DNA of 40,084 nt from a virus, in the IMG/VR virus record IMGVR_UViG_3300045988_073791. One strand, given 5' to 3'. Below the pieces are notes generated by a model. The model was given only the letters and a program-made list of their open reading frames with translations. It was not told where the DNA came from and searched no databases. Shown here one piece after another: positions 1 through 40,084 of the stretch. The translations under genes were made by a program, and so were the position numbers. How positions within the stretch are numbered: the first letter of the stretch is position 1; the number at the start of each line of letters is the position of its first letter.

Positions 1-55
1 CTAACTATATAAATGGGATTATTTTAACACACTATAAATCAGTAAGTTAATAACT
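1..55. repeat. Terminal direct repeat, copy 1 (identical to 40030..40084)
   Basis: ctaactatataaatgggattattttaacacactataaatcagtaagttaataact is read at both ends of the window. Confidence 0.95.
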
Positions 56-4450: not shown

Positions 4451-4681
4451 ATGAAACAGATAGTAGTAAAACTGACCGAAGAACAGCAGGCGTTAATCAA
4501 ACTATCCGCTACTGCCATTGACGCTAAAGCCAGCAAGCCGATTATAGAAGCTATGGACGCTACAGACAGCGTGGAGATAGATTTTAACGAACTGCTGGAA
4601 AGCAAAGAAGAACAGAACCAAATAGTAGTCGCTATGGGTCTGATGGCTATAGGGAAAATCGCCAACGACCTAAACGTATAA
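4451..4681 (+). CDS. Hypothetical protein (77 aa)
   Basis: The ATG at 4451 (MKQIVVKLTEEQQ) is preferred over the track start 4367, which overlaps the preceding gene out of frame. Confidence 0.55.
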   Translation: MKQIVVKLTEEQQALIKLSATAIDAKASKPIIEAMDATDSVEIDFNELLESKEEQNQIVVAMGLMAIGKIANDLNV

Positions 4682-4686
4682 CATTT

Positions 4687-4715
4687 GCCCGGTGTGGGTG
4701 CATCCTGCACCGGGC
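4687..4715 (+). terminator. Strong stem-loop (about 12 bp including two G-U pairs, 5-nt loop) right after the 4451..4681 stop codon
   Basis: gcccggtgtggg / tgcat / cctgcaccgggc. No clear T-run follows, so a terminator function is uncertain. Confidence 0.35.
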
Positions 4716-4732
4716 TATTAAAAGGAAACGAT

Positions 4733-5191
4733 ATGCAAGAGATATTATTAACCATAGCGGAACGATGCCACGCAGCGGCAACGAAGCGGGGCAAAGATAC
4801 CACGGGTGTAGGTTGCATCCAGTCTTTGCGCATGGAACTGGGCGAATACTGGAAAGCGACCGACAGAGCCACAGAAACGCCTGAATTTGACGAAATAATA
4901 GCGCAGGCGGGCAAACTATCGGATGAAGATTTTGCAGCGTTCTACGGGGCTAAAATCCATAATACGGCGACCGATGAACTGGCAGACATTCTGATAGTGG
5001 CGGCTACGTGGCTGTGGGAAGCGAAAGCCGAAGCAGGCGACAATTTCCAGCCCGGCAGGTCTATAGATGTTATGCTGCTGACCGGTGCCGTGCAGTTTGT
5101 CTGCGGACAGATGGCAGACCAGCACGACATAGAGAGGCTGCGCAAAGTGGTTAATCTGAAAATGCGGTATAACGAACCGAGAAAGGATTAG
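4733..5191 (+). CDS. MazG-like nucleotide pyrophosphohydrolase (tentative)
   Basis: An all-helical protein with LRMELGEYWKA and TDELADILIVAATWLWE, which resemble MazG EExxE/D motifs. The ATG at 4733 is preferred because the non-ATG track start 4685 runs through the hairpin. Confidence 0.5.
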   Translation: MQEILLTIAERCHAAATKRGKDTTGVGCIQSLRMELGEYWKATDRATETPEFDEIIAQAGKLSDEDFAAFYGAKIHNTATDELADILIVAATWLWEAKAEAGDNFQPGRSIDVMLLTGAVQFVCGQMADQHDIERLRKVVNLKMRYNEPRKD

Positions 5192-5194
5192 CCG

Positions 5195-7141
5195 ATGCGC
5201 GAGATAGGGATAGACATAGAAACCTACAGCAGCCACGATTTGAAAAGCTGCGGCGTTTACCGCTATGTGGAGGCACCGGATTTCGCTATAATCCTATTTG
5301 GGTACAGCGTGGACGGTAGCCCGGTAAAATGCGTGGATTTGGCGCAGGGCGAAAAAATACCCGATGATGTGTTTGCCGCACTGACCGACCCGGCAGTTAC
5401 CAAGACGGCATTTAACGCCGCCTTTGAGCGTGTTTGTATCGGCAAATACTTTTTCGGCAAGCCGTTAGACCCGGCGCAGTGGCGGTGTACGATGGTGCGT
5501 GCAGCCCGTATGGGCCTACCGCTATCACTGGAACAGTGCGGCGAAGTGCTGAGGCTGGAGAACGGAAAAATGAAAGAGGGCAAAACACTAATCCGCTATT
5601 TTTCCACACCGACCAAAGGCAAACGGCATTTGCCAGCGGATGCACCGGACAGATGGGAGGTTTTCAAGCAGTACAATATCCGGGACGTTGAGGTAGAGCA
5701 GCAGATATTAGCCAAAGTGCGCAGGCTGGAACCGGCGGAATTTGACGAAAGACTGTACACGGTAGACCAACGGATAAACGACCGTGGCGTGCTACTGGAT
5801 AGGCAACTGGCTGAAAACGCTACGCGCTTTGATGATGAATATAAAGCGCGGCTGCTGGAAGAAGCCAAAGCCCTAACCGGTATGCCGAACCCCAACAGCC
5901 CGGCGCAAATCAAAGAGTACCTGCACAGGGCTACCGGCCTATCTATCGACAGCCTAAACAAAAAAAATCTGGATGATATAGAAAGTCAGCTAACCTACTG
6001 GCCAAAGGCACAGAAAGTTTTACGCATTAGGCGTGAAATGGGCAAAACGTCTACAAAAAAATACTGCGCTATGCTGGAGTGTGTCTGCGATGACGGACGG
6101 ATACACGGGCTTTTGCAATTCTACGGCGCAGCCCGTACCGGACGATGGGCAGGCAGGCTGGTACAGGTGCAGAACCTACCACAGAACCATTTGCCCGATT
6201 TGGACTATGCGCGGACGCTGGTTAAGGCAGGCGATTTAGACGATTTCGAGCTAAACTACGCTAACCCCACTTATGTACTATCCGAACTGATACGCACGGC
6301 TTTTATCGCAAAGTCCGGCTGCACATTCCATGTCTGCGACTTTTCGGCGATAGAAGCACGGGTAATAGCGTGGCTGGCTGGGGAGCAGTGGGTATTGGAT
6401 GTATTCCGTGCGGGCGGTGATATTTACTGCGCTACCGCCAGCCAGATGTTTAAGTGCAAGGTAGAGAAGCACGGCGAAAACGCAGAGCTTCGACAAAAGG
6501 GAAAAATAGCCGTACTGGCACTGGGCTACGGCGGCGGCGTGGCTGCGCTGGAGAACATGGGCGGTAGCCGTATGGGGCTGAGCCAGCAGGAAGAAAAAGA
6601 CATTATGACCCGCTGGAGGTCTGCAAATCCGCGCATAGTCAAGTTTTGGACTATCATAGAAACCGCTGCTGTGCGTGCCATTAAGTACGGCGAAGAAGTG
6701 ACCATTAACCGGGGCATAGTGGTATCGTATCGCTGGGGTATGCTGCTTATTACCCTACCGTCCGGGCGCACTATCTGTTACCCGCGTGCCACTATCGGAG
6801 TGGAAACCGGGGACGGATGGAGAGGCGACCACGAGATTATAGAGTATGAGGGACTGAACCAGACTACGAAGAAGTGGGAAAAGATACGCACCTATGGCGG
6901 AAAGCTGACCGAGAATGTGGTACAGGCTATCGCCCGTGACATTCTGGGCTATATCATTCTGAGAGCCGACAAAGCGGGGCTTAATATCGTATTCCACATA
7001 CACGATGAGATAGTGGTAGAAGCGGAACCGGGGCAGACCCTACAGGACGTGGAAGCCATTTTTTGCAAACCTATTGGCTGGTGCCGGGATTTGCCGCTGA
7101 AAGGCGCAGGTTATACGACACCATGCTACCTAAAAGACTAA
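5195..7141 (+). CDS. Family A DNA polymerase with N-terminal 3'-5' exonuclease domain
   Basis: IGIDIETYS (ExoI), DFSAIEARVIAWLAGE (motif A), RQKGKIAVLALGYGGG (motif B) and FHIHDEIVVEA (motif C). Confidence 0.92.
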   Translation: MREIGIDIETYSSHDLKSCGVYRYVEAPDFAIILFGYSVDGSPVKCVDLAQGEKIPDDVFAALTDPAVTKTAFNAAFERVCIGKYFFGKPLDPAQWRCTMVRAARMGLPLSLEQCGEVLRLENGKMKEGKTLIRYFSTPTKGKRHLPADAPDRWEVFKQYNIRDVEVEQQILAKVRRLEPAEFDERLYTVDQRINDRGVLLDRQLAENATRFDDEYKARLLEEAKALTGMPNPNSPAQIKEYLHRATGLSIDSLNKKNLDDIESQLTYWPKAQKVLRIRREMGKTSTKKYCAMLECVCDDGRIHGLLQFYGAARTGRWAGRLVQVQNLPQNHLPDLDYARTLVKAGDLDDFELNYANPTYVLSELIRTAFIAKSGCTFHVCDFSAIEARVIAWLAGEQWVLDVFRAGGDIYCATASQMFKCKVEKHGENAELRQKGKIAVLALGYGGGVAALENMGGSRMGLSQQEEKDIMTRWRSANPRIVKFWTIIETAAVRAIKYGEEVTINRGIVVSYRWGMLLITLPSGRTICYPRATIGVETGDGWRGDHEIIEYEGLNQTTKKWEKIRTYGGKLTENVVQAIARDILGYIILRADKAGLNIVFHIHDEIVVEAEPGQTLQDVEAIFCKPIGWCRDLPLKGAGYTTPCYLKD

Positions 7142-7145
7142 GAAT

Positions 7146-7478
7146 ATGACAGAAAGACGATTTTTAAGATTTTACTACGCCGCTATAAAGCGGTACGGTG
7201 ATAAACGCTGGACTGCCCACCACGATGTAATAGAGTTTAACCCTAACTACACGGTGAGCGTTAGCGGTCTGGAGAAAGAAGATTTTGACTACAGGGACGA
7301 TAAGCCCTATGTAGTGGAGTTATCCAACGGCACTAAGTTTCTGTGCTTTTTCCACGGCTTCGGTGACGGGCTGGAGGATGAGATACTGAGCGCACGGGGC
7401 GAAGCCGCTAACAGCTATGTGGGCGATGAGTGCGTAGCGAAAGTAAAGAAGAACATTAACAAATTAAACCAGTATTGA
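7146..7478 (+). CDS. Hypothetical protein
   Basis: Compactly spaced between the polymerase and the next gene, which starts 2 nt after its stop codon. Confidence 0.6.
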   Translation: MTERRFLRFYYAAIKRYGDKRWTAHHDVIEFNPNYTVSVSGLEKEDFDYRDDKPYVVELSNGTKFLCFFHGFGDGLEDEILSARGEAANSYVGDECVAKVKKNINKLNQY

Positions 7479-7479
7479 T

Positions 7480-8142
7480 ATGTGCAAATTAACAAATGAA
7501 CAGATGCTGCGTTACTTCATATTTAAGGATTGCGGCTTTGATGAGGAAATAGCAAAGAAAAGTTATGATTTCGTGATGGGTAACGAACCGGAGCCACAGC
7601 CGGAGAGCAAACCGACTACCGAACTGGCAGACGGCATTTATCTGATGTACGGAAAAACGGCTGTGCCATATACCGGACAGGAAGTATCAGCACAGGGCTG
7701 TATTGGTGTAGGCGTAAAATTCGGCGGCAAATCGCTGGTGCTGGCATTGACCGACATAAGCGATGACGATGTAGAACTGACAACACAGCAAGGCGGCACA
7801 CGCTTTATTACCGACTACCACCGTGCCGCAGAGGACATGGACGGCAAAGCCGCCACAGACGATATACGGGACATTCTTAACATGGGTATCGCTGATGATG
7901 AGTATATACCCAGTCTGGGCGAACTGTATTTTATTCTGGCACACTTTACCCAGATTAACGCTGCACTGGAAGCCGTAGGAGGCGAACCGCTGCGTAATGA
8001 TTGGTACTGGAGCAGCACACAGTACAGCGCGACCTATGCGTGGAGTTTGCCCCTCGACGATGGCAGCGCGAGCAACGACACTAAGGCAGCGAGCCAGGGT
8101 CGAGTTAGGCCCGTTTCAGCATTTTTACCCCTAAACAGTTAA
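7480..8142 (+). CDS. DGR variable protein 2 (remote target), DUF1566/C-type-lectin-fold-like C-terminal domain
   Basis: The C-terminus IPSLGELYFILAHF...WYWSSTQYSATYAWSLPLDDGSASNDTKAASQGRVRPVSAF is paralogous to the 34405..35190 product. Its last ~100 nt match the TR. Confidence 0.85.
   Translation: MCKLTNEQMLRYFIFKDCGFDEEIAKKSYDFVMGNEPEPQPESKPTTELADGIYLMYGKTAVPYTGQEVSAQGCIGVGVKFGGKSLVLALTDISDDDVELTTQQGGTRFITDYHRAAEDMDGKAATDDIRDILNMGIADDEYIPSLGELYFILAHFTQINAALEAVGGEPLRNDWYWSSTQYSATYAWSLPLDDGSASNDTKAASQGRVRPVSAFLPLNS
8021..8121 (+). repeat. DGR variable repeat VR2
   Basis: A 101-nt alignment to TR 35781..35881 gives 13 differences, all at TR adenines. The 3' 22 nt tcgagttaggcccgtttcagca are identical. 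Confidence 0.9.
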
Positions 8143-8162
8143 TCTTTAGCAGTTAAACTTTA

Positions 8163-8180
8163 GCCCGGCGAAAGCCGGGC
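8163..8180 (+). promoter_or_regulatory. GC hairpin with GAAA loop 41 nt downstream of VR2 (candidate DGR target-recognition element and/or terminator)
   Basis: gcccggc-gaaa-gccgggc forms a perfect 7-bp stem. Confidence 0.55.
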
Positions 8181-8195
8181 ATTAAATACCCAGAT

Positions 8196-8421
8196 ATGGA
8201 GATACGAGAAAAACAACTAACACTATTTCCAGAATTAGACCCACCAGTACCGGAGGGGGGTGCTATGTAGTATAGACCATGACAGAGCCAGACGGGCAAA
8301 ATGGCGGGTGTATTTCAAAAATGGAAATTACCGTGATGTCTGCGGCTGGTGCCTAAAAAGGTTTAAGGACGGCGGCGACAGTGCCGAGATAGTAGACAAA
8401 ATAGAAAAATTAAGAATATGA
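8196..8421 (+). pseudogene. Small Cys-rich ORF interrupted at a G6 tract, translationally coupled to the methyltransferase
   Basis: The ATG at 8196 (MEIREKQLTLFPELDPPVPEGG) runs into G6 at 8255..8260. The +1 frame then stays open (VLCSIDHDRARRAKWRVYFKNGNYRDVCGWCLKRF...KLRI) and ends in an ATGA overlap with the 8418 start. That frame contains no ATG. Confidence 0.35.
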
Positions 8422-9185
8422 GGGTACTAAGTTTATTTGACGGTATGAGTTGCGGGCAGATAGCGTTACGGCAGCTGGGCATTAAAGTAGACACCTACTA
8501 TGCCAGTGAGGTAGATAAATTCGCTATCGCCCAAACCATGCTTAATTTTCCCGATACTATACAACTGGGCGATGTGCGAAACATAGACGCACGGACACTG
8601 GGGCATATCGATTTACTGATGGGTGGAAGCCCATGCCAGTCTTTCAGTTTCGCCGGAAAGCGTGCCGGGATGAGTACGAAGCAGAACGAAGAAGTATATA
8701 CGCTGGAGCGGTATTTAGAACTAAAGCAGGCGGGCTTTGAGTTTGAGGGGCAAAGCTATCTGTTTTGGGAGTATGTACGGATACTGCAAGAGCTGAGAGA
8801 GAGTAACCCAAATGTCTATTTCCTGCTGGAAAACGTGGAAATGGGCAAAAAGTGGGAAAAGGTACTATCCGAGGCTATCGGACTGCAAGGCGTACACATT
8901 AACAGCGCATTAGTTTCCGCACAGATACGGAAACGCATATACTGGACTAACATACGCACAGCCCGGACGCTGTTAGGCGACTGTTACACGGACATTCCAC
9001 AGCCAGAAGATAGAGGCATACTGCTGCGCGATATTCTGGAAGATGATGCGGACGTAGACGAAAAATATTACCTATCCGATGAGGTAGTGCAGAAACTGTT
9101 AGAACACAAAAGGCGAAACGCTGAGGCCGGCAACGGCTTCGGGGCTGTTTTTCACAGCGGGGGGGGGGAAGATGCACGCACTTAA
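8418..9185 (+). CDS. DNA (cytosine-5)-methyltransferase, N-terminal half (motifs I-VIII)
   Basis: LFDGMSCG (I), GGSPCQSFSFAG (IV), FLLENV (VI) and SAQIRKRIYW (VIII). Confidence 0.85.
   Translation: MRVLSLFDGMSCGQIALRQLGIKVDTYYASEVDKFAIAQTMLNFPDTIQLGDVRNIDARTLGHIDLLMGGSPCQSFSFAGKRAGMSTKQNEEVYTLERYLELKQAGFEFEGQSYLFWEYVRILQELRESNPNVYFLLENVEMGKKWEKVLSEAIGLQGVHINSALVSAQIRKRIYWTNIRTARTLLGDCYTDIPQPEDRGILLRDILEDDADVDEKYYLSDEVVQKLLEHKRRNAEAGNGFGAVFHSGGGEDART
9159..9168 (+). repeat. G10 homopolymer near the 3' end of the first methyltransferase ORF
   Basis: Ten consecutive G counted in cacagc-gggggggggg-aagatg. Confidence 0.95.
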
Positions 9186-9227
9186 AATCGGAGGCAAAGG
9201 AGTAGACGATTTAGTATTAGTGGAATA

Positions 9228-10058
9228 ATGAAAACAACCGTAGACCGGCTGCTGATGAACCTAAGAGGATACAAGGAAAAAGCATTTGCGCTGCTGGCAA
9301 CTTCTTACAAAGGCTCACAGGCAAACGGGGCGACATTAGTAATTTGCGATATGCCATACAGTGATATAATCTGCGTAGCCTCACGGGGCAGGATGATAGA
9401 CGGCAAAAACCGCCAATGTTTAGAACCGTGTCCGGTTGAGGGTAAAACGAACTGCCTAACCACAGTGGAAAAAGATAACCTGCTTATGCAGCGGCCGCAC
9501 GGTTACAATGCAGGTAAGATTTATACGGACAAAGCACCCACGCTGACGGCCAATGCGTGGCAGGAAAATAATTTGATTATGAGCAATAACACAAAACAGC
9601 TTAACCCAAGTGGCGAAAGCAATAACGGACAGCAACCGTACCAGCAAAACCGGGTGTACGACATTAACCACAAAGCCCCGGCGTGCTGCGCAAGTCTGAC
9701 AGGCGGAGCGTATGCGATAGCGGACGAAAACGCGCCGGAAGTACGCATTAGGAGGCTGACACCTACCGAGTGCGCACGGCTACAGACTGTGCCGGACTGG
9801 TACAAATGGGGATGCAGCAACACCCAGCAGTACAAGATGCTGGGCAACGGCTGGACTATCGAAGTAATAGCGCATATACTTTCATTCCTGCAACTGAAAG
9901 CACAGAAACACAAAGAGGAAATGGAAGCACCCAAACCGAGGAACTGCGGTAACTGTGCGCTTTGCATACATACCTATATGGGCAGCGAGTGCCAACTGAC
10001 CGACAACCCGGTAGGCGATGCGCAGGACGGCTGTATAGACTATATCCCGGAGGACTGA
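9228..10058 (+). CDS. DNA (cytosine-5)-methyltransferase, C-terminal half (target-recognition region plus motifs IX-X) with Cys-rich tail
   Basis: RRLTPTECARLQTVPDWY (IX) and YKMLGNGWTIEVIAHIL (X), with a C-terminal NCGNCALCIHTYMGSECQ...DGC tail. Confidence 0.8.
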   Translation: MKTTVDRLLMNLRGYKEKAFALLATSYKGSQANGATLVICDMPYSDIICVASRGRMIDGKNRQCLEPCPVEGKTNCLTTVEKDNLLMQRPHGYNAGKIYTDKAPTLTANAWQENNLIMSNNTKQLNPSGESNNGQQPYQQNRVYDINHKAPACCASLTGGAYAIADENAPEVRIRRLTPTECARLQTVPDWYKWGCSNTQQYKMLGNGWTIEVIAHILSFLQLKAQKHKEEMEAPKPRNCGNCALCIHTYMGSECQLTDNPVGDAQDGCIDYIPED

Positions 10059-10061
10059 GCT

Positions 10062-10262
10062 ATGGACGAAAAGGATTTGAAAAGCATATCTGCTGACATA
10101 TCGGCGGAGCAGCTGCATAGGCTGTACGACCGTCTGGACGATGAGGCGAAGCCATACGCGCTGCGTGTGGGTACAAGCCAAGAAAAGCACCGGGCGGTAA
10201 CAATCTACTGCGATGCTGAGAATGTGGCGTATTTCCAAAACATTATAGACCATGAAATTTAA
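10062..10262 (+). CDS. Hypothetical protein
   Basis: Compact ORF that overlaps the start of the primase/helicase gene. Confidence 0.55.
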   Translation: MDEKDLKSISADISAEQLHRLYDRLDDEAKPYALRVGTSQEKHRAVTIYCDAENVAYFQNIIDHEI

Positions 10263-12675
10263 GCTGAAATATGATTTTACGATAGATTTAGCCACAGCGC
10301 ACAGCCGGGTATCGAAGAAGTGGCGTAACCGGCACTGGCAATGGTCTGAACTGCTGGAGAGGTGCAGCGAAACAAAGCGTACCGGAGAAACGGCGGCAGA
10401 GTACGCACGCATGAGCAGAGAGGAGCAAAGCAACGTAAAGGACGTGGGCGGTTTTGTCGGCGGGTATCTGAGCGGCGGAATACGCAAAAATACAAATGTG
10501 CTGTACCGCAGCGTGGCTACGCTTGATATAGACTACGGCACGGTAAACGTCTGGGATGACTTTACTATGGCCTTTAATTTCGCCGCAATGCTTTACAGCA
10601 CGCACAAACACAGCGAAGCTGCACCCCGGTACCGTCTGGTATTTCCACTGAGCCGACAAGTGACCCCAGCGGAATACGAGCCGGTTTGCCGGAAGATAGC
10701 GGCAGAACTGGGTATAGATTTATTCGATGATACCACCTATGAACTGCCACGACTTTTCTACTGGCCCAGCACGTCCAAAGATGCTGATTTTGTCTTTGAG
10801 TACCAAGACGGCCCGGCGTGCAACGTAGACCAGATACTGGCCCAGTACGTAGACCCCTACGATGTCAGCGCGTGGCCTATGTCCAGCAGGGAGAACACGG
10901 TAATAGCGCATGAAATTAAAAAGGCGGGCGACCCGACAGAGAAGCCCGGACTAATCGGCGCGTTTTGCCGGGCCTACACTATAGAGGAAGCGATAGAGCG
11001 GTTTTTGCCAGACTGCTACGAACCGACAGGCACACCCGGACGGTACACATACAAGCTGGGCAGCGTGGCGGGCGGTCTGGTATGCTACGAAAACAAATTT
11101 GCCTACAGCCACCACGAAACAGACCCGGCAAGCCGCCAACTGTGCAACGCTTTCGACCTATGCCGCATACACCTGTACGGCGCAAAGGATGAGGGCAGCA
11201 GGGCTACGGATGTGACCCGTAAACCGTCCTTTGCGGCGATGCAGGAAATGGCGGCGGCTGACAAAAACGTAAAACTGCTGATGGCACGGGAGCGCAGCGC
11301 GTCCGTGGCTGATGACTTCGGCGATGTGGAAATGCCGGAAGATTATAACGATGAGTGGAAAGCCGAACTGGAGTACACCAAATCCGGCAAACTGCTGGGC
11401 AGCATCCAAAACATAATACTGGTGCTGGAAAACGACCCGGCACTGAAAGGGCGCATTACGCACGATGAGTTTACCGGGTACGATGTGATAACGGGCGGTC
11501 TGCCGTGGAACCGGCAGGCGGCACAGTGGAGCGACCGGGACGATGCCAATTTGCGCGTATGGCTGGAACGTAACTACGACATAACCGGGAAAGACAAAAT
11601 ATATGACGCTTTGGCGGCGATACTGACCCGGCACAGCTACCATCCTATCCGGGACTATCTTAACGGGCTGCACTGGGACGGCACGCCACGTCTGGAGCGG
11701 CTGATTATTGACTATATCGGCGCGGAGGACACGGAACTAAACCGCACCATGACGCGCAAGCATTTCACTGCTGCGGTAGCCCGGATATTCCAGCCCGGAT
11801 GCAAATACGATTACTGCCTAATCCTCACAGGCCCGGAGGGTGCCGGAAAATCTACGCTGCTGGGCAAGATGGGCGGCAAATGGTTTAACGACAGCATAAC
11901 GACCACCGAGGGCAAAGAGGGCATGGAGCAACTGCGCGGCGCATGGATTATCGAGATGGGCGAACTGGTAAGCATAAAGCGCAGCGATGTAGAGAGCGTG
12001 AAAGCCTACCTATCCAAACGGGATGACAGCTACCGGGCTGCATACGGCAGGCGGAAAGAGAACCACCCCAGACAGTGCGTTTTCTGCGGTACGACAAATG
12101 AGGCGTTATTCCTCAAAGGCGACAACGGGAACCGGCGTTTCTGGGTGATAGCCGTAGACCCGGCACTGCGCAAGTACCAGCACTGGCAGGAAGCGTTAGA
12201 CCGCGACCGTGACCAGATTTGGGCGGAAGCGGTGGAATACTACCGCAGGGGCGAAAAACTGTATCTGGATGACCAGCTGGAGGCGCAGGCACGCCAGAGG
12301 CAGGAAGCATATAACGATGACAGCGACGACCCGATAGTGGCGATGCTTCATAAGTTTCTGGACATGAAACTACCGGCGGACTGGCCCACACGTGACATAC
12401 CGGACAGACGCAGGTACATACGCACGCCAGACCCGCTACAGGCGGACGGCGTGGAAATGCGCAGCCGGGTATGTGCCGCAGAGTTTATTTGCGAACAACT
12501 GGGCAGGGAGATTTCCGACAAAGAATTTAAATACCTGGCCCGGCGTGTAAACAAGTTAATAGGAAGTATGCCTAACTGGGAGCCGATAAGCACCAGCAGG
12601 CACGCTGAAAGATGGTACGGTAGACAGAGAGCATACAGGCGCATAGATAATGCAGAAAATGAGGAAGATTTATAA
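10252..12675 (+). CDS. Primase/helicase: N-terminal primase-polymerase-like region fused to a VirE/D5-type P-loop NTPase
   Basis: N-terminal VATLDIDYG and LFYWPS acidic motifs, Walker A LTGPEGAGKST, Walker B-like WIIEMGEL, and a size (807 aa) and position typical of phage VirE-family primase-helicases. Confidence 0.8.
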   Translation: MKFKLKYDFTIDLATAHSRVSKKWRNRHWQWSELLERCSETKRTGETAAEYARMSREEQSNVKDVGGFVGGYLSGGIRKNTNVLYRSVATLDIDYGTVNVWDDFTMAFNFAAMLYSTHKHSEAAPRYRLVFPLSRQVTPAEYEPVCRKIAAELGIDLFDDTTYELPRLFYWPSTSKDADFVFEYQDGPACNVDQILAQYVDPYDVSAWPMSSRENTVIAHEIKKAGDPTEKPGLIGAFCRAYTIEEAIERFLPDCYEPTGTPGRYTYKLGSVAGGLVCYENKFAYSHHETDPASRQLCNAFDLCRIHLYGAKDEGSRATDVTRKPSFAAMQEMAAADKNVKLLMARERSASVADDFGDVEMPEDYNDEWKAELEYTKSGKLLGSIQNIILVLENDPALKGRITHDEFTGYDVITGGLPWNRQAAQWSDRDDANLRVWLERNYDITGKDKIYDALAAILTRHSYHPIRDYLNGLHWDGTPRLERLIIDYIGAEDTELNRTMTRKHFTAAVARIFQPGCKYDYCLILTGPEGAGKSTLLGKMGGKWFNDSITTTEGKEGMEQLRGAWIIEMGELVSIKRSDVESVKAYLSKRDDSYRAAYGRRKENHPRQCVFCGTTNEALFLKGDNGNRRFWVIAVDPALRKYQHWQEALDRDRDQIWAEAVEYYRRGEKLYLDDQLEAQARQRQEAYNDDSDDPIVAMLHKFLDMKLPADWPTRDIPDRRRYIRTPDPLQADGVEMRSRVCAAEFICEQLGREISDKEFKYLARRVNKLIGSMPNWEPISTSRHAERWYGRQRAYRRIDNAENEEDL

Positions 12676-34420: not shown

Positions 34421-35190
34421 CAGATAAAGATATGGCGAAGAAAACAAAAACTTTAGGAACAGTTACGACAGTAACGAGTATGAACACGTCACAGTACATA
34501 CCGCTAACCGATAGCAGCGGCAACGTGACAAAAATAACGCTGGCAAACCTCAAAGCATCTTTGCTGGCTGGTCTGAACCTCAACGCAATGAATGACGGCG
34601 TATTTATCATGTTTCACAGAAAGAGTGATAATTACCCGCTGGCAGTCAAGCCGGACAAATGGGCAAGTTACCAGAACAGCGGCGAGATAGCGGAGGGCGT
34701 ATTAGTCGTAGAGGGCGGCAAGATGCTGGTAGTAGCACCCACCGAAGCTACGCTGTACTGGAGTAGTGCGGCGGTAAGTGCAGGCGGTAAGACTACGAGC
34801 GACCGACTAACCGCACTGGATGACTGGGCAGGAAAGACCAGCACGGCTGCGCAGATTACGCACAACGAATGTAAGACGGAAAGTTATGCGCCGGGCTTCT
34901 GTGCCTCTTATTCCAGAACCAACGCAAACGGCAAAGGACTGACCGCCGGGCGATGGTGGCTACCGTCTTTGGGTGAGTTGATGATGATTTATGCGAATAT
35001 GCGTAAAATCAATTATGCCCTATCGCTGATTAACGGAGCGACCCAGTTAGCCGAAACCGCATACTGGAGTAGTACCGAGTCCAGCGCGATCGATGCGTGG
35101 GATTTGTACCTCAGCAATGGCGACGCGCACAACGGCACTAAGGCAACGTACCAGTATCGAGTTAGGCCCGTTTCAGCATTTTTGAATTAA
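34405..35190 (+). CDS. DGR variable protein 1 (tail-module target), DUF1566/C-type-lectin-fold-like C-terminal domain
   Basis: LPSLGELMMIYANM...AYWSSTESSAIDAWDLYLSNGDAHNGTKATYQYRVRPVSAF, with the 3' 101 nt matching the TR. An alternative start is ATG 34432 (MAKKTKTLGT). Confidence 0.88.
   Translation: MDDHLTDKDMAKKTKTLGTVTTVTSMNTSQYIPLTDSSGNVTKITLANLKASLLAGLNLNAMNDGVFIMFHRKSDNYPLAVKPDKWASYQNSGEIAEGVLVVEGGKMLVVAPTEATLYWSSAAVSAGGKTTSDRLTALDDWAGKTSTAAQITHNECKTESYAPGFCASYSRTNANGKGLTAGRWWLPSLGELMMIYANMRKINYALSLINGATQLAETAYWSSTESSAIDAWDLYLSNGDAHNGTKATYQYRVRPVSAFLN
35078..35178 (+). repeat. DGR variable repeat VR1
   Basis: A 101-nt alignment to the TR gives 12 differences. Eleven are at TR adenines and one is C->T (TR 35793 / VR 35090). 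Confidence 0.9.
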
Positions 35191-35217: not shown

Positions 35218-35237
35218 TGTGCGGCGGTAGCCGCACA
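35218..35237 (+). promoter_or_regulatory. GC hairpin with GGTA loop 39 nt downstream of VR1 (candidate DGR target-recognition element and/or terminator)
   Basis: tgtgcggc-ggta-gccgcaca forms a perfect 8-bp stem. Confidence 0.55.
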
Positions 35238-35283: not shown

Positions 35284-35664
35284 ATGAATAAATCAAAACT
35301 GGTATCAAACACGCAGATATATTTAGACTGCCGTAAACTGTTAGACGAAATTCTGGATATTACGCCTAACTTTCCGAGAGCCTACAAGTTTAGCGTAGGC
35401 AGCAAGATGCACGACATAGGCGTAAATCTTATATCCGAAATATCGGCGGCCTACATAAACCGGGATAGACAAACCCGTATCCAGCATTTGGTAAATTTCC
35501 AGTCGCAGTTTGAAGTATTGAAAACTTTGCTGCGCATAGCGGGTGAAAGGAAATGGATATTAGGCAGAAGCAGGCACGCAAATATTATCGAACTGACGGA
35601 CGCGATAGGCAAACAGTCTACTGCGTGGAAGAACTCACTATTAAAAATTATCAGCAATGTATAG
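35284..35664 (+). CDS. avd: DGR accessory variability determinant (Avd-like four-helix-bundle protein)
   Basis: 126 aa, basic and helical, positioned between the target gene and the TR/RT. Motifs such as FPRAYKFSVGSKM resemble the four-helix-bundle (23S rRNA-IVS protein) family. Confidence 0.8.
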   Translation: MNKSKLVSNTQIYLDCRKLLDEILDITPNFPRAYKFSVGSKMHDIGVNLISEISAAYINRDRQTRIQHLVNFQSQFEVLKTLLRIAGERKWILGRSRHANIIELTDAIGKQSTAWKNSLLKIISNV

Positions 35665-35780: not shown

Positions 35781-35881
35781 AGTACAGCGCGACCAATGCG
35801 TGGAATTTGAACCTCAACAATGGCAACGCGAACAACAACACTAAGGCAACGAACCAGAATCGAGTTAGGCCCGTTTCAGCA
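35781..35881 (+). repeat. DGR template repeat (TR), non-coding RNA template
   Basis: Intergenic. By my count it has 36 A in 101 nt. Read in the target frame it gives YSATNAWNLNLNNGNANNNTKATNQNRVRPVSA, Asn AAC/AAT-rich. It matches VR1 and VR2. Confidence 0.9.
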
Positions 35882-35922: not shown

Positions 35923-37107
35923 ATGGTTACTACGGACGGATTGTTAGAAGCATATTTTGACTGCCGCAAAAGTAAGCGGAGAACAGCCAGTGCCATTATG
36001 TACGAAATAGACTACGGTAGCAAGTTAATAGCACTTCGCGACCGTATAAATGACCGTACCTATCGCCCCGGTAAGTCTATCTGTTTTGTCGTAACGCGCC
36101 CACGGTATCGAGAAGTATTTGCGGCTTCTTTTGAGGACAGAATAGTACATCACTGGATAGCCCTACGGCTGGAGCCGCTTTTTGAAGAAGTGTTTAGCCC
36201 ACGCACGTTTAACTGCCGGAAAGGCAAAGGACAGATGTACGGTGTTACGATGCTGCACAACGACATTAAGGAGTGCAGCCAGAACTATACCCGTGACTGC
36301 TATATAGCGAAACTGGATTTGCAGGGCTTCTTTATGTCTATAAACAAAGCCATGCTGGCTGAAATGATAGACAAATTTATACTGGAGCGTTACAAAGGTG
36401 ATGACATAGAGGATTTGCGTTTCCTTTGCCGGGTGGTTATCCTGCACAGTCCGGAAAAGAGCTGCGAAAGACACAGCCCACTGCATTACTGGGATTATCT
36501 ACCTGCAAACAAATCGCTGTTTACAAACGGCGAGGGTCTGGGCGTGGCGATAGGTAATCTGTTTGCGCAGCACTTCGCAAATTTCCTGCTTAACATTTTG
36601 GACTGGTATCTGCTAAATGATTTGGGCTTTACCTATGTCGGCAGGTATGTAGATGACTTCTATATACTGGATACCGATAAGCAGAAGATATTAGCCGCTG
36701 TACCGAAAATCCGGGAACTGCTGGGCAAATACGGTCTGACCCTGCACCCGCATAAATTCTATATCCAGCACTACACCAAAGGCGTAGAGTTTACCGGGAA
36801 CGTGGTTAAAAAGCAGCGGATATATGTTTGTAACCGCACGCTGAAAAACTTTGTTATGGCAGTCCGCAGACTGAACCGGGCAGAAACCATAGAGGAAGTA
36901 GAGCACGCAGTTAGCAGCATTAATAGTTATCTGGGCTTCATGCGGCACGCCAACGAATACGGCAAGCGGCGCAAAATCCTAAAGATGCTGGAGCCGCACG
37001 TATTTAAGTGGGTCTATATCCGTGGCCACTTTGAAGTAGTGGTAATCAAAAAGAAGCACCGGCGAAGAACAATAACCCTACAGCGTATTAGAGATGGAAC
37101 ATATTAA
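35923..37107 (+). CDS. DGR reverse transcriptase
   Basis: RT motifs PRYREVFAASFEDRIVHH, AKLDLQGFF, GVAIGNLFAQHFANFLL and GRYVDDFYIL. It is 394 aa and adjacent to the TR. Confidence 0.93.
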   Translation: MVTTDGLLEAYFDCRKSKRRTASAIMYEIDYGSKLIALRDRINDRTYRPGKSICFVVTRPRYREVFAASFEDRIVHHWIALRLEPLFEEVFSPRTFNCRKGKGQMYGVTMLHNDIKECSQNYTRDCYIAKLDLQGFFMSINKAMLAEMIDKFILERYKGDDIEDLRFLCRVVILHSPEKSCERHSPLHYWDYLPANKSLFTNGEGLGVAIGNLFAQHFANFLLNILDWYLLNDLGFTYVGRYVDDFYILDTDKQKILAAVPKIRELLGKYGLTLHPHKFYIQHYTKGVEFTGNVVKKQRIYVCNRTLKNFVMAVRRLNRAETIEEVEHAVSSINSYLGFMRHANEYGKRRKILKMLEPHVFKWVYIRGHFEVVVIKKKHRRRTITLQRIRDGTY

Positions 37108-38564: not shown

Positions 38565-38594
38565 GCCGTGCAAGCCTGCGAGGGTAAGCGCGGC
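38565..38594 (+). terminator. Possible terminator hairpin between the convergent lysis and integrase genes
   Basis: gccgtgc ... gcgcggc forms a 7-bp stem with one G-U pair and a 16-nt loop, followed by tatttta. It overlaps the int stop codon. Confidence 0.3.
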
Positions 38595-39817
38595 TATTTT
38601 ATTCCGTGCAGCATCCAATCAATTACCCGGCGGTTTGCAGCGTCTATTTTGTCCCGGCTAAACTTAATGTACACCCCGGTTATTTTAGAGCCGTGGACGT
38701 GGCCCAGTGCTTCGCTGATGGTATCTTTCGGTATATCCAAATCCGCCGCATAGGTAGCCCACGAATACCGCGACCAGTAGGACGTAATAGCAGGCTCAAT
38801 GGGCGACATAACCGGCAGATGGTTTTTGTGGTACTGCGCTTTTCCGCCTACCGTCTTAACCGGGCCTATTTTCCGCAGCGCGGCGTTTAAATGTGCCATA
38901 TAGTCTTTGTAGTTATCGTATTTGTCAAACGGTGCCAGCAGATGTTTTTTACCCCTATAGCGGTCTAATATGGCCTGCGTTTCCGGCTCAATTTTGATAC
39001 TATAGAATTTGCCCGTTTTCGCCCGGCGGTATTCTATCCTACCGTCCACGATGCTATCTTTGGTGAGTGCCGCCAAATCTACCATATTGATACCGATAAG
39101 GTAGAACGACAGCAGAAAGATGTCCCGGTATTCCGTATCGTATGCCGACAGCGACAGCCCGGCAAGTTGGCGCATTTTTTCCACTGGCAGTACCCGCATG
39201 GCTGTTTCCTCAGACGGTATGCGGTAGTTTCGGAATGGGTAGTTTTGCGTTATATTTTCGTCCAGCGCATAGTTAATGACATTGCGCAGATTGCGTAGGT
39301 GCATCCCACGGCTGTTTACGGATAGCCCCTGCAAGGAACTGTAAAATCCGTCTATCCATAGTTTCGTTATCTTTTCAAACCGTATCTGGTACGGGTCACA
39401 GTAGGCGGTAAGTTTCTTTAGTGTTTGCTCAAACAGTGTTTTAGTGCCGCCGGACTTCATGCCTATAATCGTATCGAACAGCGTACCAAGTGTGGGAACA
39501 CCGACCGTAGGATTTTCCAAATCCAAATCGGTAAGCATTTCCCGAAGCTGCGGCCCGGTAAGATTACCCCACTGGCCGTTTTCCCGTAATTCCAAAATCC
39601 GGTTAGCCACACGGGTAAGCAGGGTGTCCAGCACTGAGTTTATACGCTTCGCACTTTTGCCGGTAGCCCGGCAGGTGGTAGCATCCCAATCCTCAGCAGA
39701 CAGGAATATACCAGTAGCGAGGTAGAGATTAGAACCGTATCCGACTGCGATTTGCACCGGATATGTGCCGTCTTTGAGTTTGCGCCGGGTATCAAGGCGC
39801 AATTTTGATTTTGCCAT
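38594..39817 (-). CDS. int: Tyrosine recombinase / phage integrase
   Basis: N-terminal arm-binding-like RLDTRRKLKDGTYPVQIAV. Catalytic-region motifs MHLRNLRN, SRYSWATYAA and ALGHVHGSKITGVYI. Confidence 0.9.
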   Translation of the reverse strand: MAKSKLRLDTRRKLKDGTYPVQIAVGYGSNLYLATGIFLSAEDWDATTCRATGKSAKRINSVLDTLLTRVANRILELRENGQWGNLTGPQLREMLTDLDLENPTVGVPTLGTLFDTIIGMKSGGTKTLFEQTLKKLTAYCDPYQIRFEKITKLWIDGFYSSLQGLSVNSRGMHLRNLRNVINYALDENITQNYPFRNYRIPSEETAMRVLPVEKMRQLAGLSLSAYDTEYRDIFLLSFYLIGINMVDLAALTKDSIVDGRIEYRRAKTGKFYSIKIEPETQAILDRYRGKKHLLAPFDKYDNYKDYMAHLNAALRKIGPVKTVGGKAQYHKNHLPVMSPIEPAITSYWSRYSWATYAADLDIPKDTISEALGHVHGSKITGVYIKFSRDKIDAANRRVIDWMLHGIK

Positions 39818-40084
39818 AATCTTTGCTTTGTTTTTGCTGCTTTATAGCTGAAAAATGTCCCCAAATGTACCATAATCTACCATATTAACACCCACCAGCA
39901 ACCACTTTTTAATGTTAATTATCTTATTTGCTTAACTGAAATTTTGCTGACTTTATTTTATAATCGGCTGATATATTGCAGTTTATACAAAATCAAACAC
40001 TATTAAAAATGCTACCAGCGGCTATATGCCTAACTATATAAATGGGATTATTTTAACACACTATAAATCAGTAAGTTAATAACT
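39818..40084. promoter_or_regulatory. AT-rich attP-like region (continues into 56..90 across the circular junction)
   Basis: Non-coding, next to int. It has an imperfect direct repeat, ttatttgcttaactgaaattttgctg (39924..39949) and ttatttgctgaaaatttgctg (64..84). Confidence 0.45.
40030..40084. repeat. Terminal direct repeat, copy 2 (identical to 1..55)
   Basis: Exact 55-nt match to the window start. The window ends exactly at the repeat end. Confidence 0.95.

Follow-up and report, generated by a model that had tools for sequence, protein, structure and literature searches.

Experimental work on the diversity-generating retroelements (DGRs) of phages has centred on diversified receptor-binding proteins. 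The closest described relatives of the system analysed here are the Bacteroides phages Bacuni F1, F2 and F4, in which a two-target DGR layout that includes a remote target has already been described (Hedzet, Rupnik & Accetto 2021, PMC8143477); in that account both targets are called putative fimbrial-tip-like adhesins, and the position of the remote one in the replication module is not discussed. Gut phages of the Quimbyviridae carry a second, non-structural DGR target beside DNA methyltransferases, for which a role in phage-host conflict was proposed (Benler et al. 2021, PMC8008677). A survey by Wu et al. (2018, PMC5758913) reported 'many examples' of non-adjacent targets in phage-associated DGRs and placed DUF1566 targets, about half of which are short stand-alone proteins, in its category 'd' (CLec2). 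We analysed the virus record IMGVR_UViG_3300045988_073791, a stretch of 40,084 nucleotides (hereafter the window), with a focus on the open reading frame (ORF) at 7480..8142, which we call T2. Sequence comparison indicates that T2 is very probably a functional, currently active, non-adjacent target of the single DGR of this phage. The remote-target layout is not in itself new, because it has been published for the Bacuni phages (PMC8143477), in the prophage survey (PMC5758913) and for the Quimbyviridae (PMC8008677), and an earlier sequence-only reading of the window, which had called a second, non-tail target unusual, overstated the case.

The window represents a different phage species from Bacuni F1, F2 and F4, but shares with them an orthologous remote target in the same slot, after the family-A DNA polymerase gene (PolA) and a small ORF and before methyltransferases. 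Also shared are a single cassette of accessory protein (Avd), template repeat (TR) and reverse transcriptase (RT) beside a tail-module target, a variable repeat (VR) of ~35 amino acids and the same downstream spacer and hairpin; in the Bacuni phages, activity of the remote target is evident from the differences between F1 and F2. In the Quimbyviridae, too, a single RT and TR serve two targets of the lectin type; the first follows the tail fibres, and the second is distant from the structural module and neighbours DNA methyltransferases. T2 is comparable in layout, since its VR is distal to the structural module and adjoins DNA-modification genes. In Quimbyvirus, however, the second target is on the opposite strand with a nuclease and a tRNA ligase nearby, whereas T2 is on the same strand as its cassette, inside the presumed replication operon; the T2 family member gp76 of phage BS-TP1, described below, has a Quimby-like gene context. 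Bordetella phage BPP-1 resembles the window in its adenine-specific TR-to-VR transfer, in having an invariant 3′ homing element with distinct VR and TR versions, and in a GC-rich stem with a 4-nt GRNA loop downstream of the VR (PMC3240598). It differs in having a single target, an Mtd-type tail-fibre protein, that adjoins the cassette, whereas the window target is of the DUF1566 type and lies 12–28 kb from the TR. The survey of Wu et al. includes the same arrangement of one adjacent and one non-adjacent target in the same prophage, within 50 kb, but treats non-adjacent targets without functional or positional analysis and does not single out the head-linker-DUF1566 family (PMC5758913) to which T2 belongs.

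Results

The DGR of the window and its two targets, T1 in the tail module and T2, comprise the following features.

7480..8142, plus strand: T2, remote DGR target of 220 amino acids, with a helical head, a Pro/Glu linker, a DUF1566/C-type-lectin-like domain and a C-terminal VR (ORF; Pfam Lcl_C; orthologue of Bacuni_F1_00026)
7480..7605, plus strand: head of T2 (amino acids 1–35, two predicted helices) and EPEPQPE linker (conservation in three clades; helices from low-confidence AlphaFold2 models)
8021..8121, plus strand: VR2, the VR of T2 (101-nt ungapped match to the TR; population entropy)
8100..8126, plus strand: invariant 3′ end of VR2, similar to an initiation of mutagenic homing (IMH) element (8100..8121 shared with the TR and VR1)
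8163..8180, plus strand: hairpin downstream of VR2, presumed to be a DGR target-recognition hairpin or cruciform (GCCCGGC-GAAA-GCCGGGC)
34432..35190, plus strand: T1, proximal target and last gene of the tail module (VR1 at 35078..35178; hairpin at 35218..35237)
35284..35664, plus strand: Avd accessory protein (Pfam bAvd, E = 9.4e-30; NCBIfam DivGenRetAVD, E = 1.8e-9, below cut-off)
35781..35881, plus strand: TR, single donor to both VRs (alignment to VR1 and VR2)
35923..37107, plus strand: DGR RT (Pfam RVT_1, E = 3.5e-16; 70–74% identical to the Bacuni RT)

VR2 (8021..8121) aligned to the TR (35781..35881) without gaps, with 88 of 101 positions identical. All 13 mismatches fall at TR adenines (36 of the 101 TR nucleotides are A; hypergeometric P = 2.8e-7) and at the first or second base of a codon, for the most part AAY. 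The gapless alignment and the 13 adenine-confined differences noticed by the sequence-only reading were therefore reproduced, and the software alignment that it had named as a possible refutation yielded no VR2 mismatch at a non-A position of the TR. Its claim that the last 22 nt are identical to the TR and VR1 was confirmed for 8100..8121, and the 21-mer CGAGTTAGGCCCGTTTCAGCA occurs at only three sites in the window (TR, VR1 and VR2) with 3 mismatches allowed, compared to 0.00 expected by chance. Over the same span VR1 differs from the TR at 12 positions, 11 at A and one C-to-T. This sole non-adenine difference of VR1 pairs TR C35793 with T at 35090 and changes Thr to Ile.

Two details of the earlier description required adjustment. 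VR2 had been taken as the last 101 coding nucleotides of T2; the alignment stands, but coding continues for 18 nt (FLPLNS) past 8121 to a stop codon at 8140..8142. Similarly, the distance of 27 kb between the target and the TR holds in one direction (27.76 kb) but is 12.27 kb in the other, because the genome is closed or terminally redundant.

Diversification of VR2 was assessed in 121 aligned sequences, consisting of the window protein and its 120 closest homologues (87–97% identical) in a 5.8-billion-protein collection. Column entropy averaged 2.87 bits over the 11 positions that have an Asn codon of the TR as template, against 0.21 bits for the remaining 23 VR positions and 0.13 bits for the 181 positions that lie beyond the VR. 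The population variability on which the sequence-only reading had staked its claim is thus present exactly at the A-templated codons, which is not the pattern of a decayed target. In the Bacuni and BS-TP1 clades, the hypervariability of the family is likewise limited to codons with an Asn template. Outside the VR, dN/dS values of 0.10–0.24 (unsaturated comparisons) indicate that T2 is under purifying selection. Within the VR, Lys202 (AAG, 8083..8085) is templated by a codon with two TR adenines, yet it is invariant in all 121 close homologues while the adjoining Asn-templated codons are near random, suggesting strong selection for keeping Lys. In Bacuni F1 the codon equivalent to the AAG of Lys202 is GAG.

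Cultured relatives show the same restriction. The T2 orthologues of the near-isogenic phages Bacuni F1 and F2, compared together with 130 nt downstream, differ at 16 positions, 16/16 inside the VR, with 15 at TR adenines and one at a G. This comparison reproduces the variation of the 'secondary VR', in which Hedzet et al. (2021) counted 15 single-nucleotide polymorphisms between F1 and F2 (PMC8143477). Between Bacuni F1 and F4 the remote-target gene and its flank are identical, and the 18 differences observed all lie within the span of the proximal VR. A single non-A change was seen in each of two VRs, G to T in the remote VR of F2 and G to A in the proximal VR of F4.

The sequences that follow the two VRs share elements that could direct homing. 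Immediately after the common 3′ end, both VRs carry a T (8122 and 35179) where the TR carries a C (35882), and the Bacuni phages show the same single-base distinction. By analogy with described DGRs, this T/C difference is the kind of VR/TR distinction that would give homing its direction. A similar AT-rich spacer (TTAAT..GTTA..CTTTA) follows VR1 and VR2 and leads to a GC hairpin with a four-base loop, GCCCGGC-GAAA-GCCGGGC after VR2 (8163..8180; 7-bp stem, GAAA loop) and TGTGCGGC-GGTA-GCCGCACA after VR1 (35218..35237; 8-bp stem, GGTA loop), while no comparable hairpin was found downstream of the TR. The VR2 spacer and hairpin are 100% conserved in seven relatives (contigs L004–L010), and in the Bacuni phages spacer and hairpin likewise follow both VRs. 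In BPP-1, a GC-rich stem with a GRNA tetraloop 3′ of the VR is required for efficient homing, and a foreign gene can be made a target by the IMH and hairpin alone (Guo et al. 2011, PMC3240598); other phage DGRs have stems of 7–10 bp and a 4-nt GRNA loop, located 4–34 bp from the VR (PMC3240598). Both window hairpins conform to this stem and loop rule, with a distance from the VR end of 36–41 nt that is slightly beyond the range of 4–34.

On the BPP-1 model, RNA from the TR (35781..35881) would be reverse-transcribed by an RT/Avd complex with misincorporation opposite adenines, and the resulting cDNA would replace VR2 (8021..8121) as well as VR1. Homing in trans would be steered by the cis elements common to both VRs and absent from the TR, namely the 3′ end with its VR-specific T, the AT-rich spacer and the hairpin. 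The expected outcome would be that, within the final 35 residues of the lectin-like domain, 11 Asn codons are rewritten together with a few codons for Thr/Tyr/Gln.

Alternatively, VR2 could be a decayed or fossil repeat, or its likeness to the TR could stem from gene duplication or from ordinary gene conversion between paralogues, with no current DGR activity. Some shared sequence is indeed expected, as T1 and T2 are paralogues. However, the confinement of 13/13 VR2 differences to TR adenines (P = 2.8e-7), the concentration of population entropy on Asn-templated codons, cis elements that are intact and perfectly conserved, and near-isogenic cultured relatives that differ within the remote VR only all speak against such an origin. 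T1 and T2 are only ~30% identical outside the VR, and gene conversion would therefore not break off precisely where the match to the TR ends; the population variation, the differences between the F1 and F2 isolates and the purifying selection outside the VR together exclude a decayed target. We consider a fossil or conversion-derived VR2 extremely improbable. The central claim of the sequence-only reading, namely that the DGR has in T2 a true second target, distant from the cassette, within the replication module and closely packed with early genes, is supported by the A-only differences, the IMH-like end, the hairpin, the Avd/TR/RT cassette, the hypervariability and the synteny described below.

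T2 and T1 share 32% identity over amino acids 26–216 of T2 (BLASTP, E = 9e-22), which identifies the C-terminal two-thirds of T2 as a paralogue of T1 and agrees with the C-terminal relationship to the tail-module target proposed earlier. T2 matches Pfam PF07603 Lcl_C (DUF1566) with E = 3.4e-5 and 24.5 bits, below the gathering score of 34.9, and many near-identical homologues carry a precomputed PF07603 match. A T2 family profile compared with the Protein Data Bank (PDB) matched the Lcl C-terminal domain of Legionella (8Q4E) and a B. ovatus fimbrial tip protein (4EPS), each with E = 1.4e-3; the Lcl C-terminal domain is a trimeric C-type-lectin-like domain (PMC11162425). AlphaFold2 models from 40- and 76-member alignments (two and three clades, respectively) were of low confidence, with a mean predicted local distance difference test score (pLDDT) of 44.9 and 47.6, and a Foldseek comparison of these models to the PDB returned noise only (best E = 0.58, TM-scores ≤0.13). 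A C-type-lectin-like fold of T2 is suggested by the weak sequence matches, the sub-threshold Pfam hit and the PDB profile hit. The only PHROG match of T2 is phrog_4245, whose function is not assigned, and PADLOC gave no defence-system match for T2.

The N-terminus of T2 has no signal peptide or lipobox and instead forms a polar helical head, with the helices taken from the low-confidence AlphaFold2 models. This head (the first 35 residues) is conserved in three clades, with invariant L4, T5, Q8, F20, D21, A25 and F31, and is followed by a Pro/Glu-rich linker that is variable across relatives. The short Cys-containing head and EPEPQPE linker of the earlier description are both present, but the two head Cys are not conserved in relatives. 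A head profile searched against 1.84 billion cluster representatives matched 26 proteins only, with the head N-terminal in all of them; the matches inspected were all members of the T2 family (~210–235 amino acids) or fragments, and no head fused to other domains was found among these representatives. The head is therefore private to the T2 family. T2 is probably a 220-aa stand-alone diversified binder, in which the two-helix head, a possible oligomerisation or docking module, is joined by a flexible linker to the DUF1566 domain. Two apparent deletion variants were also observed: in P0373 the head runs straight into a C-terminal portion of the methyltransferase encoded downstream, and in P0383 the head and linker are fused to only the final ~80 residues of the lectin-like domain, which retain an intact VR.

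The genes around T2, and the integrase at the other end of the window, are listed below.

5195..7141, plus strand: family-A DNA polymerase, PolA (Pfam DNA_pol_A, E = 1.3e-27)
7146..7478, plus strand: conserved 110-aa ORF preceding T2 (ends 1 nt before the T2 ATG)
8418..9185 and 9228..10058, plus strand: C5 cytosine methyltransferase ORFs in the downstream variable island (Pfam DNA_methylase, E = 3.5e-29 and 1.2e-12)
38594..39817, minus strand: integrase (window ORF)

These neighbours, a DNA polymerase, a tightly preceding ORF and a methyltransferase, are as the sequence-only reading had given them and are backed by Pfam matches to the polymerase and methyltransferases. The Bacuni F1 orthologue of T2, Bacuni_F1_00026 (QMS42043.1), is 40% identical over amino acids 1–216, head included (E = 5e-46). 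In ~25 viral contigs with a PolA 73–98% identical to that of the window, the T2 orthologue invariably comes next after the 110-aa ORF downstream of PolA and precedes a VapE-type primase, and the same synteny was found in 4 prophages of Muribaculaceae and Porphyromonadaceae, mainly in metagenome-assembled genomes. The body of T2 is far more diverged than its flanks, with 39–45% amino acid identity where PolA is 76–83% identical; at the nucleotide level, blastn against Bacuni found no match over 7470–8001 and flanks that are 74–77% identical. The slot from T2 to the VapE primase (8143..10262) is a variable island in relatives (including contigs L005, L007–L010 and L017). It holds two C5 methyltransferase ORFs in the window and in contigs L004, L006 and L094, whereas L008 has an ORF of 269 aa that resembles a PAPS reductase (weak Pfam match, E = 1.6e-3). 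In other relatives the slot is empty of such genes, and in L017 it contains just two tiny Cys-rich ORFs. A conserved 53-aa CxxC ORF also lies inside the island (8260..8421 in the window).

Distance from the TR is a constant feature of the family. Among more than 50 contigs of two phage lineages, no T2 family member was found in a tail module, and no TR-like copy of the VR end was found within 10 kb of full-length T2 family members; T1-type genes, by contrast, have a TR ~1.2 kb downstream. A viral contig of ~119 kb (L039) carries two T2 family members, at 4678–5350 and 10001–10669, ~5 kb apart and with the same VR 3′ end; this pair may represent two remote targets of one DGR.

The second lineage is represented by BS-TP1, a temperate Bacteroides salyersiae phage of 111.7 kb with baseplate and sheath genes. 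Its tail-module DGR consists of a target of 2187 aa (gp27), an accessory protein of the four-helix-bundle type (gp26), the TR and the RT (gp25). A full-length T2 family member, gp76 (37% identical, head included), is encoded ~50 kb from the tail-module TR and on the other strand; nearby are genes for a Lar-like anti-restriction protein, an RtcB-type tRNA ligase, a ParA-like protein and a UG27 RT. The VR of gp76 differs from the tail-module TR of BS-TP1 at 12 positions in 111 nt, 11 of them TR adenines. By this alignment, gp76 is a previously undescribed remote DGR target in BS-TP1; the published account names only gp27 as a target (PMC12694917). We also considered gp76 as a proximal target of the adjacent RT, gp79, and rejected this assignment because the surroundings of gp76 contain no TR, the TR that does match belongs to the tail-module cassette, and gp79 is a UG27-class RT (PADLOC RT_UG27, E = 4e-228) and not a DGR RT. 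The block formed by gp75, gp76, gp77 and the UG27 RT is syntenic across a clade of ~100-kb phages and in Prevotella and Palleniella prophages. When the entire window was compared with the BS-TP1 genome by tblastn, only the T2 protein, the DGR RT and a weak match of the lectin domain were recovered, and no structural protein common to the two phages was detected.

Several further observations concern the RTs of the BS-TP1 clade. A UG27-class RT always lies within ~1 kb after the gp76 family member (L084:13482–16100, corresponding to 79351–81970 of the BS-TP1 record). It is followed by ~1.35 kb without an annotated gene, in which a 32-nt repeat occurs in three copies at ~170 nt spacing (L084:14873–15247); this repeat-bearing stretch could be a non-coding RNA partner of the UG27 RT. 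The annotated RT ORF gp25 (L085:26168–27649) runs across the TR, and for this reason its N-terminus matches an Lcl adhesin model weakly and spuriously; the DGR RT of BS-TP1 probably starts downstream of the TR.

The window begins and ends with the same 55 nt (1..55 and 40030..40084), which form a terminal direct repeat; the window is therefore a complete circular/closed or terminally redundant genome of 40,029 bp. The phage is a Bacuni-like Bacteroides siphovirus with a complete gut phage genome of ~40 kb: its DNA is ~77% identical to that of Bacteroides phage Bacuni_F1 over 75% of the first 25 kb, and the gene order matches. It is temperate, on the basis of the integrase and of related prophages in Bacteroidales genomes. 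The cassette is canonical in order (T1, Avd, TR, RT), with the bAvd and RVT_1 matches flanking the TR, and the genes upstream of T1 match PHROG tail proteins. The mechanically called T1 ORF begins at a TTG (34405) and overlaps the preceding gene; comparison with the Bacuni start (MATKKTKTL) suggests that the true start is the ATG at 34432. The 110-aa ORF upstream of T2 had no match in Pfam, PHROG, NCBIfam or PADLOC, and it does not resemble the gene that precedes gp76 in BS-TP1. An Rfam scan of the window returned no RNA family. A scan for sigma-70 promoters and terminators found sites no more numerous than in shuffled sequence, and the Bacteroides −7 motif TAnnTTTG had 0 plus-strand sites in 1–13.6 kb and occurred overall at about chance frequency, so that both scans are silent on transcription units.

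Discussion

For the function of T2 we tentatively prefer, with somewhat less than even confidence, the reading that it is not a component of the tail module but is made with the genes for replication and DNA modification and has a role in conflict, either with the host or between phages; its co-transcription with replication genes and its non-tail status are suggested by gene spacing and position. This reading is favoured by the conserved position of T2 right after the PolA-linked ORF in ~25 viral contigs and 4 prophages, and by the distance of the T2 family from the TR in more than 50 contigs, T1-type genes being near it. It is favoured too by the location of gp76 in the early/accessory arm of BS-TP1 with counter-defence genes, by the conservation of the head even though the two lineages share no detectable virion protein on which it could dock, and by the infection of the same host by Bacuni F1 and F2 despite ~12 amino acid changes in the remote VR. 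The same argument has been made for the Quimbyviridae (PMC8008677). Several points weigh against a conflict protein. The DUF1566 relatives checked (Lcl, 4EPS and Legionella LdtA) are extracellular adhesins. The phage DGR target that has been studied experimentally is a receptor-binding protein. In addition, few strains underlie the finding that F1 and F2 share a host, a head with a linker would suit virion docking too, and gene position is an unreliable guide to virion membership.

A close competing explanation, which we regard as quite possible, is that T2 is an accessory receptor-binding protein or adhesin of the virion, a second and independently diversified binder whose head docks on the tail or capsid although its gene lies apart from the tail genes. 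These two main candidates correspond to the roles that the sequence-only reading had proposed. In favour of an adhesin, the lectin-like domain of T2 is paralogous to that of T1 and is related to extracellular adhesins (the Lcl C-terminal domain 8Q4E and the fimbrial tip protein 4EPS), a head with a flexible linker is a plausible docking layout, two binders could explain the unusually broad host range of Bacuni (PMC9727126), and Hedzet et al. treat both targets as putative adhesins (PMC8143477). T2 itself, however, shows neither a tail-module location nor homology to a tail-anchoring domain, and its family was never seen in a tail module in the more than 50 contigs of two phage lineages. Moreover, the head occurs in no other protein family and is conserved between a siphovirus and a sheath/baseplate phage without a detectable common structural protein, and the remote VRs of F1 and F2 are heavily different although the two phages have the same isolation host, the host difference tracking the proximal VR instead. 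T2 could also be a prophage-expressed lysogenic-conversion factor (moron) that alters the surface of the lysogen, given that the phage is temperate (integrase at 38594..39817; related prophages in Bacteroidales) and that DUF1566 proteins of Bacteroides include fimbrial tip adhesins. We find this very unlikely, as T2 has a polar helical N-terminus without signal peptide or lipobox, is packed 1 nt behind a replication-module ORF with no recognisable promoter of its own, and belongs to a family that is also present in the early/accessory gene arm of the large phage BS-TP1.

The conflict reading can be extended, speculatively, to the family as a whole. Head-linker-DUF1566 proteins would then be dedicated non-virion, DGR-diversified binders, expressed early and used inside the infected cell or on its debris, in the unrelated Bacteroidales phages that carry them with a DGR; we regard this generalisation as rather unlikely. 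If it were true, such proteins could recognise and neutralise variable proteins of host defence or of competitor phages, and would amount to a phage-side 'adaptive' counter-defence library, not a tropism device.

What the present analysis adds to the published layout is the definition of the head-linker-DUF1566 family, its invariably TR-distant, non-tail location in two phage lineages that are unrelated, the recognition that gp76 of BS-TP1 is a remote target not described before, and quantitative evidence of VR2 activity in natural populations. The window provides a clean, complete and evidently active case in which the same mutagenic machinery also serves a second protein, whose gene sits with those for replication and DNA modification. 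With cultured representatives in both lineages (Bacuni F1, F2 and F4; BS-TP1), the role of non-structural DGR targets in phages becomes directly testable.

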